From assembly GCA_965369655.1 (NCBI GenBank), contig CBDUQR010000047.1, forward strand, positions 1 to 20,341: DNA of 20,341 nucleotides. Reading direction: 5' to 3'. A program made the position numbers and the translations under genes. The notes below the pieces were generated by a model, which made no database searches, had not been told where the DNA came from, and saw only the letters and a list, made by a program, of their open reading frames with translations. Origin of the DNA: an uncultured bacterium (GTDB lineage: Bacteria; Zixibacteria; MSB-5A5; JAABVY01; JAHJOQ01). Of this stretch, positions 7,585-20,341 are shown one piece after another. Each line of letters begins with the position of its first letter. The stretch's first letter is position 1.

Positions 7585-7669
7585 TGGTGCGAAAGAGGGG
7601 ACTCGAACCCCTATGGCCAAGGCCACTGGATCCTAAATCCAGCGCGTATACCAGTTCCGCCACTTTCGC
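7585..7669 (-). tRNA. tRNA-Leu (anticodon TAG)
   Basis: Reverse complement GCGAAAGTGGCGGAACTGGTATACGCGCTGGATTTAGGATCCAGTGGCCTTGGCCATAGGGGTTCGAGTCCCCTCTTTCGCACCA: acceptor stem GCGAAAG/CTTTCGC, anticodon arm CTGGA-TTTAGGA-TCCAG, long variable arm, GGTTCGAGTCC T-arm, encoded CCA. Confidence 0.97.
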
Positions 7670-7871: not shown

Positions 7872-8276
7872 CTACGTCGTTCGCAGTGAGACTCGGAACG
7901 TAAAAGGTCCCCCCCCCTTCTTCTTGTCTGAGGGACGAGGGGATCCTGAGGGACCGGACATCTCACGCCTCCATGTTCGCCAACGATAAAGATGATGTGA
8001 ATATAACCCTTCCCGGCGCAACAGTAACGCTATTTCACTGCTGTCACTGCAGAGAGCAGCCTCCTGTCCCTCAGGATCGGGATCAGCGACCGAGAGTATG
8101 CGCAGCTTGTAATCGATCGAAAAACTCCGTCGCCTTGCTACCGGGGCAACCTCCGCATCCACGGCACGACCTGCCAGCGAGCTATCGGTATTGAGCCTGA
8201 GGTCCGCTCCACTACGTTCGCTACGCTCTCTTCGTTCCGCTGACCTCTCACTTGGTTCGGCTACCTGCTCAAACAT
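7872..8276 (-). pseudogene. IS3-family transposase OrfA (HTH) remnant with a 27-nt in-frame insertion
   Basis: RRRSFSIDYKLRIL...EIALLLRREGLYSHHLYRWR matches the OrfA HTH pattern (RRxFxxEYKxRIL...LLRREGLYSSxLxxWR); C-terminal coiled coil and orfB absent. Confidence 0.75.
8067..8093. repeat. 27-nt micro-insertion unit, family 1, copy A (in-frame in orfA)
   Basis: TCCCTCAGGATCGGGATCAGCGACCGA; near-identical copy TCCCTCGGGGATCGGGATCAGCGACCGA at 16517-16544; encodes SVADPDPEG on the minus strand. Confidence 0.85.
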
Positions 8277-11713: not shown

Positions 11714-12408
11714 ATGCTCATCCGGAGTATCGTCAGCGTGTCGCCGATGCTCTCGCTGAGATCACCGGTTTTCCGATATGACCGGTTAACGACTATTTCT
11801 GGGCGATGCGGTCGCTTGCGCCGTTTGTCGATTTCAGCGCGGCGTTGAGGAATTTGGCGATAGAGCTGTCGCGAATCATAAACAACCTCAGATTGCTTGC
11901 GTCCGGTCCAACCACCGGACTGGCGGAGATCGCTCTTCTGCCTGTGCAGCCGGGTTCATCGATTATGCCGGGCAAGGTCAACCCTGTGATGGCTGAGATG
12001 ATGAACATGGTTTGCTTCAGCGTAATCGGATTCTACGAGTCGGTAGCGTCGGCGGCTGCTGCCGGGTAACTCGAACTGAATGTCATGATGCCGCTGGTTG
12101 GTTATGCTGTTGGTGAACAGATGAAAATCATGACCGGTGGGCTCAGAACTTTTCTCGAAAAATGTCTCAGCGACATCAAACCAAACGAGGACTCATGCCG
12201 TAGATTTTTAGAGAAGAGTCTCGGACTGGTCACCGCCCTGAATCCGATCATCGGATACGCCAGGGCGGCGGAAGTCGCGAAAGAGGCGCAGGTGAGCGGC
12301 AGGTCGATCAAAGAGATCATTCTTGAAAAAGGCTATCTGACCGAGGATCAGATGGCTGAAATACTGGATCCCGGACCGTTGACCGAACCGGGCATCCCGA
12401 AAAAATAA
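11680..12408 (+). pseudogene. aspA: Aspartate ammonia-lyase / class II fumarase pseudogene (C-terminal half only)
   Basis: Single frame GLGGSAAGTGLNAHPEY...GSSIMPGKVNPV...AG*LELNVMMP...TALNPIIGY; in-frame stops TGA 11779-11781 and TAA 12067-12069; N-terminal half missing; fumC cannot be excluded. Confidence 0.88.
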
Positions 12409-12484: not shown

Positions 12485-12628
12485 GTAGGTCGAAACCTTT
12501 ACGGTTTCGACATCTTGAGAAAAGCCAAGAATGGAGAAATCAACTCTCGGGATTCGCAGAATGATCGAAGGGACTTTTCCCTTTTCGCGCTTTGCGCGAT
12601 TGTCGAAACCACAAGGGTTTCGACCTAC
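12485..12628. repeat. Inverted doublet of 27-nt GTAG-type REP hairpins (REPIN-like)
   Basis: GTAGGTCGAAACCTTTACGGTTTCGAC at 12485-12511 (+) and GTAGGTCGAAACCCTTGTGGTTTCGAC at 12628-12602 (-), 90 nt apart. Confidence 0.85.
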
Positions 12629-12805
12629 TCGACTTAACCGGCCACAAAGAGAATATGTCAATGACATTGACATCAACTTAAGAAAGTGTTATCCATGTGG
12701 TGAATCTATAATCTATGTGATGGTACATACATTTGAAACGAAAAGCCTACCCAATAGTGTTATGAAGAAACCATATAACCATTATTAGACTTATAAGGAA
12801 AAGAA

Positions 12806-13699
12806 ATGAATATTGCTCTTACATTGCTTGGTATAGCCATAGGTATTACAGTAACAGTTTTTGTTGGCCGACATTATTTCCGTCGTACCATAGAAAGAAA
12901 ATTAACGCCGTTCATACATTTACATTCAGAAGTGTTTGCTGGCATCGATCCAGAAGTGCGTAAAGACATTCAAATATTCTATAAAAATGAGGAAGTTAAC
13001 GACCTAACTCATTATCAAGTTTTGATAGCAAACACTGGCGATAGAGCTATTCGGGACTTTATTAAACCATTAACTGTCATATTTCCAGAAAACGTCAAAA
13101 TACTAGATGTCTCAATACTTCATAAATCACCTAAAGAGCTTGAACTTAGACATAAAATTGAAGCAAATAAAAATAGTGATATCTGTACATTTGAAATCCC
13201 ACTATTGAACAAAGAAGATTTTTTCCTAGTCAAATTCCTGCTCAAAGGTGAGGTCTCACCTTCTGCTCCAGAATACAGGATAACAGTCGATGACATTCCT
13301 CCTAAGATATTACCGGAATGGCTCTCCAATAGCGCTACTACAGAAGAGAAAAGTAAAATTGAGTGGGAAGCTTTTGGGTTTGGCATAGGTATTATTGTTG
13401 GAGCAGTGAGCCTTACTTATCTGGGATATTTACTATGGAAATCCACCCCCTCTCTTTTCCCATACCCTTGGAGTACTTTTCAATTTAACATTATTAGCAG
13501 TATCGCGCTAATTTTTGCAGTACTATTCATTCTTGCAGTATTTTTGATCGGTCTTTTTCTTGCAGCTGGAATTGGATTTGAAGAAGTGTTCTCCCAAAGT
13601 AAATACAAATTCCCACTTCCAAGAGAGCTAAGGCGTGGAAGTAGATTCCTCATTAAGCAAGATGCAATAACTAAAGAAATAGAAGAAAATCCGACATAA
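12806..13699 (+). CDS. Hypothetical membrane protein (297 aa), AT-rich, probably horizontally acquired
   Basis: TAAGGA RBS; N-terminal hydrophobic helix, beta-rich soluble middle, two C-terminal hydrophobic helices; markedly more AT-rich than flanking genes. Confidence 0.85.
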   Translation: MNIALTLLGIAIGITVTVFVGRHYFRRTIERKLTPFIHLHSEVFAGIDPEVRKDIQIFYKNEEVNDLTHYQVLIANTGDRAIRDFIKPLTVIFPENVKILDVSILHKSPKELELRHKIEANKNSDICTFEIPLLNKEDFFLVKFLLKGEVSPSAPEYRITVDDIPPKILPEWLSNSATTEEKSKIEWEAFGFGIGIIVGAVSLTYLGYLLWKSTPSLFPYPWSTFQFNIISSIALIFAVLFILAVFLIGLFLAAGIGFEEVFSQSKYKFPLPRELRRGSRFLIKQDAITKEIEENPT

Positions 13700-13770
13700 T
13701 TTAAAGAACTAAGAGTGAGGATGTTTAACAATAGACTGGACGAGATGCAGGGTGGTCCACCCTTCAAGAT

Positions 13771-13818
13771 GTCGAAACCGCCCTTCGAAGCTCAGGACAT
13801 GCAGGGATTTCGACCTAC
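13771..13818 (-). repeat. Third GTAGGTCGAAA REP copy interrupted by a 21-nt insertion (family 2, copy A)
   Basis: GTCGAAACCGC[CCTTCGAAGCTCAGGACATGC]AGGGATTTCGACCTAC; removing 13782-13802 leaves a 27-nt REP colinear with 12602-12628. Confidence 0.85.
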
Positions 13819-13831
13819 TCGATTTCTGACT

Positions 13832-14470
13832 TCACAACCCCAGCTGTATCGACACGCCACATAGGAGTATCACGAATCCGGCGAGAGCGTGTGAGTACTG
13901 TTCAAGACGGCCGAGTGAGATGAACCTCACTCCGTACGAGAGCACCAGGACCATCGTGATCATAGTCGAGACAGTCACCAAACCGAAAACCGTTGCGACT
14001 GCGACCATGCCGGATGTACTATGCTGCGCTGCGGGATACATCAGGATCGGTATCAGCGGCTCGCATGGTCCCAGAACGAAGACTGTAAACAGCACCCACG
14101 GCGTGATGCTTTTCTTGTCAGCGTGAACGTGTGAATGCGAGTGCCGTTTTGCGGCTCGTCTCAGCCCCCACACCAGATAGACAAGCCCGAATGCGATCAA
14201 TGCCCACGCCGCAAGGTCACCTCGGACAGATTCGATAATTTCAAGGCTAGTAACAGCGGTGCCAATTGCCGCACCAATAAGTCCGAGTACGACAGAGCTC
14301 AGCACATGACCGATGCCACAGAACGCAGTAATCACCACTGTCTTCGATCTCGACCAGTTGCGAGCCGACGCCATCGCCACGAACGGCAGATAATGATCCG
14401 GTCCGAGGACTGTATGGATCAGCCCTATCGACGCTGCTGTGATCAGTAATGCTGTCAGTTCAGCGCTCAT
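13832..14470 (-). CDS. Nickel/cobalt transporter-like membrane protein (NiCoT/UreH/DsbD_2-like)
   Basis: About 6 hydrophobic helices, HTVLGPDH motif in TM1, His-rich loop HSHSHVH, PCEP motif; start at ATG 14470 with GAAAGG RBS (212 aa). Confidence 0.8.
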   Translation of the reverse strand: MSAELTALLITAASIGLIHTVLGPDHYLPFVAMASARNWSRSKTVVITAFCGIGHVLSSVVLGLIGAAIGTAVTSLEIIESVRGDLAAWALIAFGLVYLVWGLRRAAKRHSHSHVHADKKSITPWVLFTVFVLGPCEPLIPILMYPAAQHSTSGMVAVATVFGLVTVSTMITMVLVLSYGVRFISLGRLEQYSHALAGFVILLCGVSIQLGL

Positions 14471-14626
14471 ATCTATGTGCCTTTCTTGCTCGCCGTGCGC
14501 AGTCGGAATAAAGCGATCGGACGTCATCGACGCAAGATCAATTACTTTCACCTCTTTCCGCTTGATTTCCCAGCGATATTTCGTTTATTCAGCGATCTGG
14601 ATGTGACCACATACCGAAAGGCGATC

Positions 14627-16453
14627 ATGACGACTGCAACGACCACAAAAAGTAAATCAATTCCGCAGAGATCGGATGTCGAAGAAAAAGATCGATGGAA
14701 TCTCGGCGATATCTACCCAACCGATAACGACTGGGAAAATGACTACAAGAAAGCCGAAGGACTGATCGAGAAAGCTGACGGCTTCAAAGGCAAACTTGGT
14801 GAATCGGCCTCGACTCTCTACGACTGCCTCGAAACACGAAGCAGCCTTTCGCTGATCTGCGACAACCTGCATCAATACGCCAAAATGAGCCAAGACCTCG
14901 ACAGCCGTATGTCGAAATATCAGGCGATGACCGACCGTGCAGCGATGTTAGCATCGAAAGCTACAGCGGCATTTTCGTTCGTGGAGCCGGAACTTCTGCA
15001 GATCGACGATGAAACACTTCGGAAGATGGCGGATCAGTTCCCGAAGACCGACATCTACGATTTCTATATTAAAGAATTGATCCGATCGCGAGTACATATC
15101 AGGTCCGCCGATGTCGAGGAGGTTCTCGCGCAGGCTGACATGATCGCGCGTGCTCCCGACAACATTTTCGGAATGCTGGACAACGCTGATATCAGCTATC
15201 CGACAATCAAAGATGAGAATGGCGAAGACCTGAAGCTGACCAAACAGCGGTATCAGAAGATCGTCATGGAGTGCCCGGTTCAGAGTGTCCGTCGCGATGC
15301 CAACGATGCGTTCCTGTCGTCATACAAGGATTTGCTGAACACAATCGGATCGACACTCGCCACAGCGATCAACAAAGATGTCTTCTACGCGAAAGCGCGC
15401 AAATACGACAGTTCGCTGCATCATTCCCTTGATGCCGGGAACATTCCGGTCGAAGTCTACCGCTCTTTGCTCGATACAACAGAATCACACCTCGAACCGC
15501 TTCACAAGTGGATGGCAGTCCGCAAGAAACTTCTCGGTCTTGAAAAACTGTTCTCGTACGACGTCTACTGCCCGCTCTTCCCGGATATGACATATTCGAT
15601 ACCATACGACGAGGCTGTCAGGCAGGTGCTCGAAGCTGTCGCTCCGCTTGGCGATGAGTACTGTCGCGATCTTAAATCCGGCTTCGACAAGCGTTGGGTC
15701 GATGTTTACGAAACAGAAGGCAAACGAGGCGGCGCATATAGCTGGGGAAGCTACTCGTCTCATCCGTTCGTCCTGATGAACTATAACGATACGATCAACA
15801 ACATGTTTACGCTGGCGCACGAGATGGGTCATGCGATGCATAGTTTCTTGTCTAACAGGAAGCAGCCATATCAAAAAGCATCGTACAGCATTTTCGTCGC
15901 GGAGGTAGCGTCAACATTGAATGAGGGACTGCTGCTCGATTATTTGCTCAGGAAAGCGGATGATGACAAGCAGAAGCTGTTCCTGTTGAATCGCCAGATA
16001 GACAACACTCTCGGCACGTTCCTCAACCAGGTCATGTTCGCGCGATTCGAGTTGATGATCCATGAGACCATCGAGAAAGGCGACGCGCTTTCGCCTGACT
16101 CGATGAGCGAGATGTGGAAAGAGTTGACGCGGAAGTATTATGGTTCAGCAATGGAGCCAGATGACTCCACGAAATACAAATGGGCGAGAATCCCGCATTT
16201 TTACTGGAATTTCTACGTCTACCAATATGCTACATCGTACGCAGCCTCTCAGGCTATTCTGAAGAGATTCCTCGGTGGGGAGGATGGCCTGATCGAGAAA
16301 TATCTCGGGCTGATTTCATCAGGTGGAAACGATTATCCGATTGAGCAACTCAGGAAATGCGGTGTCGATATGACCACATCCGATCCGGTTGAGGCAACCA
16401 TCCAGCTCTTCTCGCAACAGGTCGATGAACTGGAGAAGATAGCAGCCGAATAG
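14627..16453 (+). CDS. pepF: Oligoendopeptidase F (M3B metallopeptidase)
   Basis: N-terminal RSDV..KDRWNL.DIY, GKRGGAYS, zinc motif HEMGH, FVAEVAST, WARIPHFY..FYVYQYA; ATG 14627 with GAAAGG RBS. Confidence 0.96.
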   Translation: MTTATTTKSKSIPQRSDVEEKDRWNLGDIYPTDNDWENDYKKAEGLIEKADGFKGKLGESASTLYDCLETRSSLSLICDNLHQYAKMSQDLDSRMSKYQAMTDRAAMLASKATAAFSFVEPELLQIDDETLRKMADQFPKTDIYDFYIKELIRSRVHIRSADVEEVLAQADMIARAPDNIFGMLDNADISYPTIKDENGEDLKLTKQRYQKIVMECPVQSVRRDANDAFLSSYKDLLNTIGSTLATAINKDVFYAKARKYDSSLHHSLDAGNIPVEVYRSLLDTTESHLEPLHKWMAVRKKLLGLEKLFSYDVYCPLFPDMTYSIPYDEAVRQVLEAVAPLGDEYCRDLKSGFDKRWVDVYETEGKRGGAYSWGSYSSHPFVLMNYNDTINNMFTLAHEMGHAMHSFLSNRKQPYQKASYSIFVAEVASTLNEGLLLDYLLRKADDDKQKLFLLNRQIDNTLGTFLNQVMFARFELMIHETIEKGDALSPDSMSEMWKELTRKYYGSAMEPDDSTKYKWARIPHFYWNFYVYQYATSYAASQAILKRFLGGEDGLIEKYLGLISSGGNDYPIEQLRKCGVDMTTSDPVEATIQLFSQQVDELEKIAAE

Positions 16454-16454
16454 G

Positions 16455-16633
16455 GGCAGTCTCAAAAGCCCTATTCTCCAGTAGGTCGGAGTTCCGCAGC
16501 AAGCGAAGCTTGCAAGTCCCTCGGGGATCGGGATCAGCGACCGAAAACCCGACTCCTGTGCAACAAGATAAAGGTGTCACGTTTCTTACCCTCGTACCTC
16601 GGGTTCGGAACACGACCTACTTTTGGGACAGCC
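16455..16633. repeat. MITE-like unit: 14-bp terminal inverted repeats enclosing an inverted REP doublet
   Basis: GGCAGTCTCAAAAG (16455-16468) and CTTTTGGGACAGCC (16620-16633), 12/14 complementary; inside are GTAGGTCG hairpins at 16481-16553 (+, containing the family-1 insertion 16517-16544) and 16620-16576 (-). Confidence 0.7.
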
Positions 16634-16673
16634 TTTCCCGGTCTGCCCCATTTTGAGCTTGTGTAACGGAAAT

Positions 16674-16700
16674 CGGCAGATGTGGACATCTGCCGCGCAC
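16674..16700 (-). repeat. 27-nt REP-like hairpin, GGCAGA family (uninterrupted copy)
   Basis: Minus strand GTGCGCGGCAGATGTCCACATCTGCCG; homologous to the interrupted hairpin at 19819-19866. Confidence 0.75.
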
Positions 16701-16885
16701 AGTATATTCACGAATAACATACGCCCAGAATACGTTTGACAATGTACATAGCAGACCTGTCGAAACTACCTTTTCGGACAGCCGCAATAGTCTTATAACG
16801 CCTGAATTTCACGAATCTGGCATCGGTGGCCGCTCACTCTGTCTGTGAGCATTGCAAAAAGTGATACTCGAAACCCGAAATTTGC

Positions 16886-16914
16886 TTGAACCGCGTTGCG
16901 GTTTGGAGTATCTT
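16886..16914 (+). promoter_or_regulatory. Putative uvrA promoter with overlapping palindrome AACCGC-N3-GCGGTT
   Basis: TTGAAC (16886-16891), 17 nt spacer, TATCTT (16909-16914); perfect inverted repeat at 16889-16903. Confidence 0.5.
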
Positions 16915-16944
16915 TCCGGGTTCACGTATTCGATGGAGACAGAT

Positions 16945-19779
16945 GTGACAGGCGACGGCGAAATTATCATCAAGGGTGCGCGCGAGCACAATCTCAAGAA
17001 CATCGATGTAGCCATTCCCCGGAACAAGTTGGTGGTAATCACCGGACTGTCCGGCTCAGGCAAATCCTCGCTGGCGTTCGATACGATCTATGCCGAGGGG
17101 CAGAGGAGATATGTAGAATCGCTCTCGGCATACGCGAGACAATTCCTCGGCCTGATGGAGAAGCCGGATGTCGATTTTATCGACGGACTTTCCCCAGCCA
17201 TATCGATAGAACAGCGCAGTTCAGCAAAGAATCCTCGCTCGACCGTCGGAACTGTGACGGAGATATACGACTATCTCCGGCTGCTTTTCGCTCGTATCGG
17301 CATTCCGCACTGTTTCAACTGCGGTGATCGCATCACGCAGCAGACATCATCGCAGATCGTGGATGCCGTGATGGCGCTTCCATTGAAGACAAGAATCCAG
17401 GTGCTTGCTCCGCTCGTTCGAGGCAGGAAAGGCGAGCACAGGGATGTACTCGATGAAGTGGTCAAAGAAGGGTTCGTTCGCGTGAGGATCGACGGCGAGG
17501 TCTACAGCACCGACGATATTCCTCCGCTCGAAAAGAAAAAGAAGCACTCGATCGAAATTGTGGTCGATCGGCTCATACGGACTGAGAAGGTTGCCAAACG
17601 GCTCGCCGACTCGATAGAGACCGCGCTGAAGCTATCGTCCGGAGTGGTTGCCATCGCCGCGACCGGTCAGAAAGAGATGATATTCTCCGAGAAGTATGCG
17701 TGTGTCAAGTGCGGCATTTCGTTCGAGGAGATGTCTCCGCGGATGTTTTCGTTCAATTCGCCGTTCGGCGCCTGTGCGGTGTGCGGTGGGCTTGGAAACA
17801 AGATGGAAATCGATCCGACGCTTGTGATACCGAATGAAAGCTTGAGCATCAGCGATGGCGCCATTCACCCGTGGGGTTCGGATATTTCCAACTGGAACAG
17901 GTTCCAGCTTCGGGGGCTTGCTGATCATTTCGGATTCAAGTTCGGCACCAAATGGAAGCTGCTTCCCGAGAAAATACGCAAGATAGTGCTGTACGGGTCC
18001 GGCAGGACAGAAATCAACTTCAAGTACGAACATACCAGCGGCAGGGGCAAAGGGGAATATGTCGGTCGATTCGAGGGGGTGATACCGAATCTCGAACGCC
18101 GCTACAAGCAGACCGAATCGCCCGGGATCAGATCATGGATAGAGCAATACATGTCGATCAAACCGTGCCCTCTGTGCGAAGGCGCAAGATTGCGGCGCGA
18201 GTCGCTGGCGGTCGTGGTTCACAGGAAGGGCATACATGACGTGACACGGATGTCGATCAAAGAAGCGAAGCAGTTCTTCGAAGAGTTGAAACCTACCAGG
18301 CGTGAGGCATTGATTGCCAGTCAGATTCTGAAAGAACTGCGGGAGAGGCTCGGCTTTCTGTCGAATGTTGGCCTCGATTACCTTACGCTCGACAGGGCGG
18401 CATCGACTCTCTCCGGCGGCGAAGCTCAGCGAATCAGACTTGCTACGCAGATCGGTTCGAGGCTCGTCGGCGTGCTCTACATCCTCGACGAACCATCGAT
18501 CGGACTGCATCAGAGAGACAACAAGATGCTTCTGGCGACTCTGACTGAATTGCGCGACCTCGGCAACACTGTGATAGTGGTCGAGCATGACAGGGAGACT
18601 ATCGAGAGCGCCGATTATGTCATCGATCTCGGCCCTGCGGCGGGCAAGAATGGCGGGGAGATAGTTGCGCAGGGAACGCCTGAACAGATCAAGCGTTCGG
18701 ATAAGTCGCTGACCGGCAAGTATCTGTCGTTGAAGATGTCGATCCCGGTACCGAGCGGCAGGATGAAAGGCAACGGGATGAAGCTCAGGCTGATCGGCGC
18801 ATCCGGGAACAACCTCAAGAATATCGATGTGTCGATTCCCCTCGGGACGTTCACGTGTGTCACCGGCGTATCGGGTTCTGGTAAATCGACCCTGATAAAT
18901 GAGACGCTGTATCCAGCTCTCGCCCGGCTTTTTTTCGGGTCGCGCCGTCCGCCTCTGCCGTACAAGAAGCTCGGTGGTGTTGAATACATCGATAAGGTGA
19001 TCGACATCGATCAATCACCCATCGGCAGGACTCCCAGATCGAATCCGGCGACCTATACCGGAACATTCACTCATATCCGTGATCTATTTGCGCAGCTTCC
19101 CGAGTCGAGAATTCGGGGTTACAAGCCCGGCAGGTTTTCGTTTAATGTTAAGGGTGGCAGATGCGAGGCTTGCCAGGGTGACGGCATAATCAAGATAGAG
19201 ATGCATTTTCTTCCCGATGTCTATGTGCCGTGCGAGGTCTGTAAGGGCAAAAGGTACAACCGCGAGACACTGGACATCACATATAAGGGCAAGAACATCG
19301 CTGACGTGCTCGACATGACGATCGACGAAGCGCTCGAATTCTTCAGCAGAATCCCCCGGCTGCAACGCAAGCTCATGACGCTGAAGCGCGTCGGACTCGG
19401 CTACATACATCTCGGACAGCAGGCGACAACTCTGTCCGGCGGCGAAGCCCAGCGCGTCAAGCTCTCATCCGAGCTTTCCAAAACCTCGACAGGCTCAACC
19501 CTGTACATTCTTGATGAACCGACGACCGGCCTGCACTTTGCGGACATCAAGATGCTCCTGACTGTGCTCAACGATCTGGTCAATCTCGGGAACACGGTAG
19601 TCGTGATCGAGCATAACCTCGATGTGATCAAAACGGCTGATTATATAATCGATCTCGGGCCGGAAGGGGGCGATGAAGGTGGTCGTGTTGTGGCAGTGGG
19701 TACGCCGGAAGAGGTAGCGAAAGACAAGTCATCCTATACCGGTCATTTCCTGAAGAAAGAGCTGGCGAAATCAACATAG
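16945..19779 (+). CDS. uvrA: Excinuclease ABC subunit A
   Basis: GAREHNLKN, two Walker A motifs ([18 protein letters not shown]), two LSGGEAQR signatures, CxxC zinc modules. GTG 16945 has a GGAG RBS; ATG 16933 is an alternative start. Confidence 0.98.
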
Positions 19780-19818
19780 GAGCTTCACTTAGGCAGTACA
19801 GCGATGACCTTGCGTGAT

Positions 19819-19866
19819 GTGGGCGGCAGACGTCCTCGCAAGTCCTGAGCATCGAAGGGTCTGCCC
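19819..19866 (+). repeat. GGCAGA-family REP-like hairpin interrupted by a 21-nt insertion (family 2, copy B)
   Basis: GTGGGCGGCAGACGTCCTC[GCAAGTCCTGAGCATCGAAGG]GTCTGCCC; removing 19838-19858 restores the perfect stem GGCAGACG-TCCT-CGTCTGCC. Confidence 0.85.
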
Positions 19867-19896
19867 CATCGTTGGGATATTGTCTCTGATCGATTC

Positions 19897-20073
19897 TCAG
19901 TCTGCTTCTTTATTCTGATGTAGTCGTCCAATCAGCAGCTTCAGCTTCCCGCTGAGAATCTTGTTAACAGTTGCCGCAAACCGTTCCGGTGACAGGTGCT
20001 GCAGCAGGAGTGGGTGGAAGTACCGTTGAATGATCGGGTGACGCTCCGCATCATGTGCTTTGTCGGCCTTCAT
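19897..20073 (-). CDS. Small hypothetical protein (58 aa)
   Basis: Strong RBS GGAGGG 6 nt before ATG 20073 (MKADKAHD...); convergent with uvrA; no recognisable family. Confidence 0.55.
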   Translation of the reverse strand: MKADKAHDAERHPIIQRYFHPLLLQHLSPERFAATVNKILSGKLKLLIGRLHQNKEAD

Positions 20074-20341
20074 AACTGTCCCTCCGACAGGGTGGCGTCG
20101 CAAATCACAGGTGTCGTTGCTGCCTTCGCGCGCGCTGTCAAACGCAGCCCGAGTGCAGCGGGTCAGTCAACCCAGGTCAGGGCAAGTCGACCCAAGCGGT
20201 AAACGGGTCTCTACTTTGTATAACCGTTCAGACAAGTAGATGTTTCTGGAGACTGTGCGTGAATTGATGGAATATGTTATCCGGCGTCAGCAATGTGAAC
20301 AGCGGCTGTCGAGTATGATGCAGGCAATTCGTCCCACGATT

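Follow-up and report, generated by a model that had tools for sequence, protein, structure and literature searches.

A 21-23 nt module in the loops of several REP-type hairpin families of a Zixibacteria genome

Introduction

Two tagged hairpins in a 20,341-nt stretch of Zixibacteria DNA (the window, contig C47) are interrupted by almost the same 21 nt. Is this 21-nt unit a discrete element that enters hairpins, or a part of the hairpins themselves, and how did it come to sit in more than one hairpin family? REPs are usually treated as indivisible units that are copied by RAYTs. An earlier interpretation from the letters alone (the sequence-only reading) took the unit for a tiny parasite of such repeats. 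Here we follow the unit through the whole assembly (G000; 2,986,768 bases in 100 contigs, 51.8% G+C) and through 121 sampled genomes of the phylum. C numbers denote contigs, of G000 unless another genome (G number) is given.

Results

Two near-identical units interrupt two REP-type hairpins

The unit is present as GCATGTCCTGAGCTTCGAAGG on the minus strand (13802-13782, copy 1) and as GCAAGTCCTGAGCATCGAAGG on the plus strand (19838-19858, copy 2). The sequence read at both sites confirms that the copies are 19/21 identical. The units and the related hairpins of the window are:

12489..12511, plus strand: second empty REP1 of the window, GTCGAAA-cctttacgg-TTTCGAC, with GTAG ahead
12602..12628, minus strand: empty REP1 sibling, GTAG-GTCGAAACC-CTTGT-GGTTTCGAC
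13771..13818, minus strand: filled REP1 host; GTAG tag (13818-13815), 5' arm GTCGAAATCC, loop, unit, 3' arm GGTTTCGAC
13782..13802, minus strand: unit copy 1, GCAT + GTCCTGAGCTTCGAAGG; 21-nt 'CTT' variant of the proposed mini-hairpin module
16674..16700, plus strand: empty hairpin, inverted-partner type of the main REP, CGGCAGAT-GTGGAC-ATCTGCCG-CGCAC; loop GTGGAC closed by T..A
19819..19869, plus strand: filled main REP; GTGGGC tag, 5' arm GGCAGAC (19825-19831), host loop GTCCTC (19832-19837), unit, 3' arm GTCTGCC (19859-19865), then CCAT
19838..19858, plus strand: unit copy 2, GCAA + GTCCTGAGCATCGAAGG; 'CAT' variant

Copy 1 splits GTCGAAACC..GGGATTTCGAC-CTAC at 13771-13818. The filled host measures 48 nt and the empty sibling at 12602-12628 measures 27 nt, so taking out 21 nt gives back the host length, as had been proposed. 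The predicted empty site of this copy is found verbatim in another genome (G110:C219). Copy 2 splits GGCAGAC-GTCCTC-..-GTCTGCC at 19825-19865. An empty sibling in the window had been assigned to each host; this holds for copy 1, but the hairpin at 16674-16700, assigned to copy 2, is the inverted-partner type of the same repeat, a different subtype. This type is filled with the unit elsewhere (C15:32997, C33 and C19), and the exact empty form of the copy 2 host, GGCAGAC-GTCCTC-GTCTGCC, is present 19 times elsewhere in the genome. The boundaries of the unit slide by 1-2 nt owing to G/GC, as described before. The two hosts had been considered unrelated, whereas both are tagged REP-type hairpins, with GTAG for copy 1 and GTGG for copy 2. 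Copy 1 is atypical, combining a REP1 host with a unit variant typical of the main host. The 'CAT' variant of copy 2 appears only twice in the genome-wide core listing.

Both copies are intergenic. The gap that holds copy 1 is a convergent one, bounded by ORF 12806-13699 (+) and a DsbD_2-domain ORF, 13832-14551 (-). Copy 2 follows uvrA at a distance of 40-60 nt; the filled main REP begins 40 nt downstream of the uvrA stop (19779). Aspartate ammonia-lyase is matched by two other ORFs of the window, which are short and adjacent: 11806-12069 corresponds to its residues 273-356 and 12085-12408 to its residues 358-467. The pair resembles a truncated or broken aspA beside a repeat cluster.

The unit belongs to a larger motif family

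With W at its variable base, the 17-nt core of the unit has two matches in the window, while none is expected from 100 dinucleotide-preserving shuffles. The genome-wide search that the sequence-only reading had recommended returned 93 copies of the core with up to 2 mismatches, against 0 for a reversed-pattern control. Allowing up to 3 mismatches gives 108 matches at 87 sites, of which 71 are single, 13 double, 1 triple and 2 quadruple. An indel-tolerant scan yielded 335 loose matches versus 73 in the control, and the exact motif TCCTGAG-N3-5-CGAAGG has 203 copies in the genome versus 0. The 21-nt unit thus belongs to a larger family, [G/A]TCCTGA-G..C-GAAGG, of which it is the shortest variant. 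The family consensus reads [G/A]TCCT-GA-G(N)-3-nt loop-(N')C-GA-AGG-[G/A]; members measure 21-23 nt with a 3-5 nt linker included. Variants are mostly host-specific: REP1 carries mainly ..GAGCCTGCGAAGG and the GTAG-GTCATGCCC host ..GAGTTTGACGAAGG. The exact 21-mer is absent from species representatives beyond its own genome, which is uninformative since variants exist.

The unit can be drawn as a TCCT/AGGR stem with tandem G.A pairs, an inner stem of 1-2 bp and a 3-nt loop. The inner pair is C-G, T-A or T-G in 112/120 copies, yet in 25/29 distinct sequences, and base composition alone predicts ~83%. Nearest-neighbour folding of the isolated 21-mer as DNA gives an MFE of 0 kcal/mol, and as RNA its z-scores are non-significant. 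We offer the fold as a proposal, since the support for the inner stem is weak and the energy models leave the isolated 21-mer unfolded. At the gathering threshold of Rfam 15 there is no match to the unit, only a tRNA at 7588-7669. With E up to 5 over 12500-20341 the units are likewise unmatched, the sole hit being a weak NsiR1 at 18879-18935, away from them. Hammerhead and K-turn readings of CUGA..GAA were dropped by eye, as the core positions do not fit.

The unit sits at the 3' edge of hairpin loops

A 7-nt stem brackets 63/87 sites, compared with 3269/20000 random positions (16%). In 51 of these 63 bracketed sites the core (..CGAAGG) runs straight into the 3' arm, at a distance of 0 nt, and in 45 the 5' arm ends 10-11 nt ahead of the core. 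This spacing defines the layout as 5' arm, host loop, 3-5 nt linker, unit or units, 3' arm.

In the main host, loops fall into discrete length classes. Exact GGCAGAY..RTCTGCC stems enclose loops of 6 nt (63 sites), 27/28 nt (32 sites) and 48/49 nt (9 sites), followed by ~70 and ~91 nt, which corresponds to 6 + n x 21/22; the counts were halved, as both strands had been scanned. Tandem arrays (e.g. C4:10515-10573) hold up to four copies, which follow one another directly every 21 or 22 nt. In the REP1 host, GTCGAAA..TTTCGAC, 9-nt loops (10 sites) are found beside loops of 30-32 nt (14 sites), and sub-lineages of REP1, including a GC/GC stem variant, hold empty beside filled forms. The host ATCACGAGGAGCGA..GTGGTGAT has 7-nt loops in 16 copies and 28-nt loops in 2. 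It is filled at 2 of ~19 scanned copies and the ATTGCGAGCGA.. host at ~2/32, and neither resembles REP1. Hairpins of the types GTCAGGAC..GTCCTGAC, ATTGCGAGCGA..GTGGCAAT and TCAATCGG..CCGATTGA also exist empty and filled, so that, together with the main REP and REP1, at least six differently stemmed families are found in both states. Further carriers are another REP variant with a GTAG tag, two hairpin types beginning ATCACGAGG.. and ATTGCGAG.., and hairpins in G003, G005, G113 and G062. Units in rare hosts are located at C5:52816, C13:16457, C8:26588, C31:13602, C57:4810 and C62:4154.

An identical 17-mer forms the stem-proximal copy at 20/32 captured main-host sites and is present in 10/12 loop subtypes, which differ at up to 4/6 bases. 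The unit can occupy either strand of the main host and is opposite to the host tag at ~17/87 sites, as read from the site listing. One hairpin, C2:129-176, contains two inverted units. The bases ahead of the insertion vary with the host (..CCTCG, ..GGACA, ..ACAGC, ..ACCGA and ..CCCTG); at the junctions read we found neither a target consensus nor a consistent target duplication, the overlap being 0-2 nt and host-dependent. Quantised loops, the range of hosts, the shared 17-mer and the nesting described below bear out the view of the unit as a discrete module, present or absent, in hairpin loops.

Other modules occupy loops as well. A second nested module of ~28 nt, TCGGTCGC[C/T]GATCCC..GATCCYGAGGGA, has 76 matches genome-wide with up to 1 mismatch in the first 15 nt. 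In the window it is located at ~8079-8093 (-) and 16530-16544 (-), and it is probably the micro-insertion family that had been listed first in the sequence-only reading. It takes the same loop positions in the ATCAC.. and ATTGCGAG.. hairpins, often with an extra insert of 40-60 nt, and is found twice within the unit itself (C18:28845 and C53:8645). Contigs of the runs X1 and X3 join 16545 to 16595 or 16602 beside this module, omitting 49 or 56 nt. These skips may represent paralogous repeats rather than alleles, as their sides measure only 22-30 nt. In G002, which belongs to another genus of the family, the same GGCAGAT..ATCTGCC stem encloses, at 10 sites (e.g. C5:54272-54313), a different loop module, CCTGATCCCGATGAGAATCGGGATTGTG, which is self-complementary and 27-28 nt long.

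It is conceivable that the 19-23 nt module is itself mobile, excised or copied into single-stranded hairpin loops by a trans-acting enzyme. The insertions are precise to 21-23 nt and share one structural position across at least six host types, and the identical 17-mer spans divergent loop subtypes. The two inverted units in one hairpin point the same way, as do recursive nesting, with the 28-nt module inside the unit (C18:28832, C53:8632) and the unit inside a unit-like hairpin (G062), and the use of the same position by other modules, namely one of 23 nt in the REP1 loop (C19 and C55) and that of G002. However, the searches reported here found no empty/filled allele pair, target motif or associated gene, and the host-specific variants and the cross-genus composites described below show that most copies arose through copying of the host. 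We consider an active micro-transposon rather unlikely.

The hosts are REP-type elements

The hosts are high-copy extragenic palindromes, with 63 empty and ~45 filled sites for the main stem and 24 tagged copies for REP1. They carry a GTAG-type tag: REP1 follows GTAG or a close variant, and the main host is preceded by GTGGGC at 18/32 captured sites. The tetranucleotide GTGG is given as a GTAG variant in the survey excerpts of PMC3733652. The main host is also found as inverted doublets, for example at C15:32938 and 32997. In these features the hosts are REP elements. In two relatives a Y1 transposase gene of 141-179 aa lies between inverted REP1 copies and forms a REPtron (G004:C142, 5150-6100; G003:C163, 1000-2850), and a RAYT gene at G003:C139:2000-3300 is flanked by GTAG-GGCAGGTCTC.. 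hairpins. One RAYT-flanking REP1 in G003 holds another loop module, of 27 nt.

Five Y1_Tnp matches are the only transposase-like genes found in the genome, and four of them are RAYT-like and flanked by other REPs. None of these four, when examined, has a unit-bearing REP beside it. Y1 proteins of the genome are encoded at C31:20755, C76:5452, C37:15142 and C9:68523. A local tblastn search of the genome returned no close ortholog of the REP1-flanked RAYTs of the relatives, the best match being 29-34% identical, and genome-wide searches for RVT_1, the TnpB domain, IS110 and rve gave 0 matches each. The sequence-only reading had suggested looking for a transposase gene flanked by the unit; none was identified among these four transposase/RT families and four RAYT-like genes, and 30 unit pairs enclose 49 crude ORFs. 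Addition of the unit by reverse transcription is disfavoured, as no RVT_1 domain was found. The fifth Y1_Tnp match (IS200-like) covers residues 802-877 of a 1072-aa frame with N6_Mtase and Type_ISP_C (G000:C23:19917-23132), either a fusion with, or an in-frame insertion into, a Type ISP restriction-modification gene. Beyond the five matches, a truncated C37 RAYT, of which the C-terminal part only is present (G000:C5:13500-13830), has the same two flanking REP variants as the intact gene.

Host and unit are copied together

About half of the 87 sites, as read from the site listing, lie within one longer repeat with the constant flanks gtgggcGGCAGACgtcctcgcaa..GTCTGCCccat. The objection that the sequence-only reading had raised against its own proposal, that the 21-mer is a constant part of a longer repeat, therefore applies in part. 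Among the sites of the main host, most have constant flanks. Composites of host and unit are 89-96% identical in another genus (g5), and the filled REP1 of distant genomes have a common ..TGC-CT-GTCC junction, which is equally compatible with one old subfamily and with repeated insertion. Since about half of the sites belong to one constant-flank repeat, the unit has probably spread for the most part by riding along when REPs are copied (hitch-hiking) and by slippage.

Flanks are also exchanged between hosts. The chimeric site C25(-)32568 has its left flank from the ATCACGAGG.. hairpin and its right flank from the main REP, and the four-unit arrays C71:159-241 and C77:7217-7276 have a common right flank and different left flanks. 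These chimeras suggest recombination at the units, which shuffles the hosts too. The GTAG-GTC.. host stems form graded series whose members are 1-2 pairs apart (GTCAGGAGC/GTCAGGACC/GTCAGGATC, GTCAAGCGG/GTCAAGCGC and GTCATGCCC/GTCACGCCT).

The family is widespread and single copies turn over fast

The motif is present in 80/121 sampled genomes of the phylum, usually in 1-40 copies, with controls at 0-2. Hosts and unit alike are old. Copy number among relatives spans 0-1 to 203: G000 has 203 copies and G001, of the same genus, a single one. The unit is found inside REP1 in other families (G120, G113, G093 and G026), inside GTCATTGCGAG..GCAATCTC hairpins (G113), inside GGCAGA-type hairpins (G062, G005 and G003) and inside a unit-like hairpin (G062). 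In G009 it is free-standing, as GTCA-TCCTGAGCGAAGCGAAGG-ATCT.

The short REP1 occurs in 62/121 genomes, with up to 44 sites, and filled REP1 with exact stems in 4/121. These proportions suggest that the short form is the older one. The opposite polarity would require no insertion at all: the long loop would be an old REP architecture, short forms would arise by hairpin-mediated deletion, and the hosts would have diversified by compensatory stem change (quasi-palindrome correction) and recombination. The graded stem series, the composites in distant families and the chimeric sites and arrays are all in line with this, and excerpts of PMC3733652 describe short and long self-complementary loops side by side in REPs of E. 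coli and Bradyrhizobium. Against it, the short form is far commoner, hosts unlike REP1 (ATCACGAGGAGCGA.. and ATTGCGAGCGA..) carry the unit in a few copies each, one host type has it in both orientations, and several unrelated modules use the same loop position. We regard such an insertion-free origin as unlikely.

In a second 20-kb region, the repeats in orthologous intergenic gaps of G000 and G001 are wholly different, indicating that single copies turn over fast while families persist. A filled/empty polymorphism, for which the sequence-only reading had advised looking, was not seen at one locus in either the Logan contigs or G001, which is too diverged. At the window loci, there is no synteny with G001 upstream of pepF, and a contig end lies beside the uvrA site. 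The Logan contigs list no event in which the 21 nt are left out; being contigs only, they cannot show the absence of variants. One contig of X1, the possible source sample, spans 13782 in the filled form, and none does among the listed X2 and X3 pieces. At copy 2, run contigs end at 19847, inside the unit.

The unit is intergenic and shows no orientation bias

A length divisible by 3 had been thought to suit coding regions. This argument carries no meaning, as copies lie outside coding regions and the length varies from 21 to 23 nt. Only 7/192 unit sites lie inside crude ORFs of at least 200 aa, and 22/87 sites are in open frames of at least 150 codons, compared with 4443/5000 random positions. 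A coding location was rejected for these: 16 were inspected and are near frame ends, with translations that are not protein-like. Convergent gaps are over-represented, with 38/152 classified unit sites against 226/1624 gaps genome-wide. We found no orientation bias relative to the flanking genes in tandem gaps (46 same, 45 opposite) and no GC-skew bias (65 vs 73).

Alternatively, the motif could be a functional cis-element, selected as a site for a protein (a nucleoid protein or RAYT) or as an RNA structure, with its spread being secondary. The phylum-wide conservation of the motif could come from selection of this kind. The blocks TCCTGAG and CGAAGG are conserved, while the middle varies in sequence and length and its pair changes between C-G, T-A and T-G; the motif is present in 80/121 sampled genomes, with controls near 0. 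When copy 1 is folded as RNA, a GUCCU/AGGGC helix is predicted to stack onto the host stem. Set against this are the even orientation and skew counts, the absence of an Rfam match at either threshold, the uneven copy number among relatives, and tandem arrays and nested insertions, which are typical of selfish or neutral DNA. Intergenic placement, together with the lack of bias and of an Rfam match, speaks more for selfish or neutral DNA than for a sense-specific RNA element, and we consider a selected cis-element very unlikely.

Discussion

The unit is best read as a non-autonomous mini-hairpin module of REP loops that owes its spread chiefly to hitch-hiking and slippage and only rarely to structure-directed transfer. 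We give this reading a probability of about 0.5. The idea of a parasite of REP repeats survives in part: the unit is modular in the REP loops of several families, but no target consensus, empty allele or linked gene was found.

According to this reading, the module would be non-coding and non-autonomous, placed on the 3' side of the apical loop, at its very edge, in hairpins of the RAYT-associated REP type. Host and unit would be copied as a single block with each round of REP/REPIN copying, a step that the pattern of sites displays. The same is true of local duplication into 21/22-nt tandem arrays, for which slippage is the presumed cause. Occasionally the unit may enter a new hairpin in a structure-directed manner, at the junction of loop and 3' arm, in single-stranded extruded hairpin DNA. 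A Y1/HUH (RAYT-type) strand transfer or a template switch during replication could perform this step, and transfer to new hairpins looks rare. Insertions on the 3' side may persist as they spare the tag, the stem and the 5' loop bases, the parts that are read by RAYTs of some groups. Corneloup et al. 2021 (PMC8266576) describe the loop as dispensable for the E. coli RAYT and the first loop base as essential in two group 3 systems, and the latter could act as a filter in favour of 3'-side loop insertions. Such a filter leaves the opposite-strand sites unexplained.

A bolder generalisation, which we think improbable, would make these modules the smallest mobile DNA: mini-hairpins of 19-28 nt without terminal repeats or a target sequence, pasted at the loop/3'-arm junction of any extruded hairpin, REPs and each other included, by a single-stranded-DNA Y1/HUH protein or another activity.

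The preferred reading of a hitch-hiking loop module has consequences for how REPs are viewed. REP loops here act like docking sites for a second layer of smaller modules, and one module is common to several REP families and many genera of a phylum. If transfer is enzymatic, the unit would set a lower size limit for mobile DNA with purely structural target choice, and it would be a tractable test case for the handling of hairpin DNA by HUH enzymes or replication, for which short oligonucleotides are enough. If only hitch-hiking and slippage are at work, it is still a clear example of mosaic-repeat building. The break of run contigs within copy 2 is also a warning for annotation and assembly.

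Several known systems resemble the unit in part. Elements of the IS200/IS605 type use a Y1 HUH enzyme on folded single-stranded DNA hairpins; they need a subterminal hairpin at either end and a fixed target of 4-5 nt. The likeness is that Y1 is the only transposase class found in the genome; the bases before the insertion are, however, host-dependent, TnpB matches number 0 and no Y1 gene was seen beside a unit. The unit does not look like a MITE or IS derivative either, as its ends, GTCCTG.. and ..GAAGG, are not inverted repeats and the junction overlap is 0-2 nt. Its arrays differ from CRISPR-like ones in being contiguous, with a 21-22 nt period and no spacers. The d(GCGAAGC)-type DNA mini-hairpin with a GNA loop is very stable. 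Longer unit variants hold ..GCGAAGG.., but the sequence is not the same and the 21-mer is not predicted to fold. E. coli BIMEs and pneumococcal BOX are mosaic repeats built from interchangeable short modules of 40-60 nt. Their sequences are unrelated, and their modules lie between hairpins or arms and not at a fixed loop edge. Mitochondrial palindromes (PMC4524435) were set aside as not relevant.

The closest parallel is found in REPs with long loops. Short loops occur beside long self-complementary loops of up to 27 bp in E. coli GTAG-3 and Bradyrhizobium GTAG-14 (Di Nocera et al. 2013, PMC3733652), and the excerpted text of that survey states that repeats with unusual loops were thrown out. 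These long loops are family-specific, whereas the module is common to families and genera; tandem arrays and recursive nesting are not mentioned in the same excerpts. In the literature, supplementary REP catalogues aside, we found no description of a loop module that is common to several REP families, tandem-amplified and recursively nested.

The hosts themselves are like the REP/REPIN repeats mobilised by RAYTs (Y1/HUH): they are short, high-copy, extragenic tagged palindromes, and REP1 flanks RAYTs in G004 and G003. The unit is no REP in the sense of a tag with a stable stem-loop of 20-40 nt, as it has no tag and the isolated DNA is predicted to remain open. Unlike a REP or REPIN, it is 21-23 nt long, lies inside the REP loop and not beside it, and is common to several REP families.
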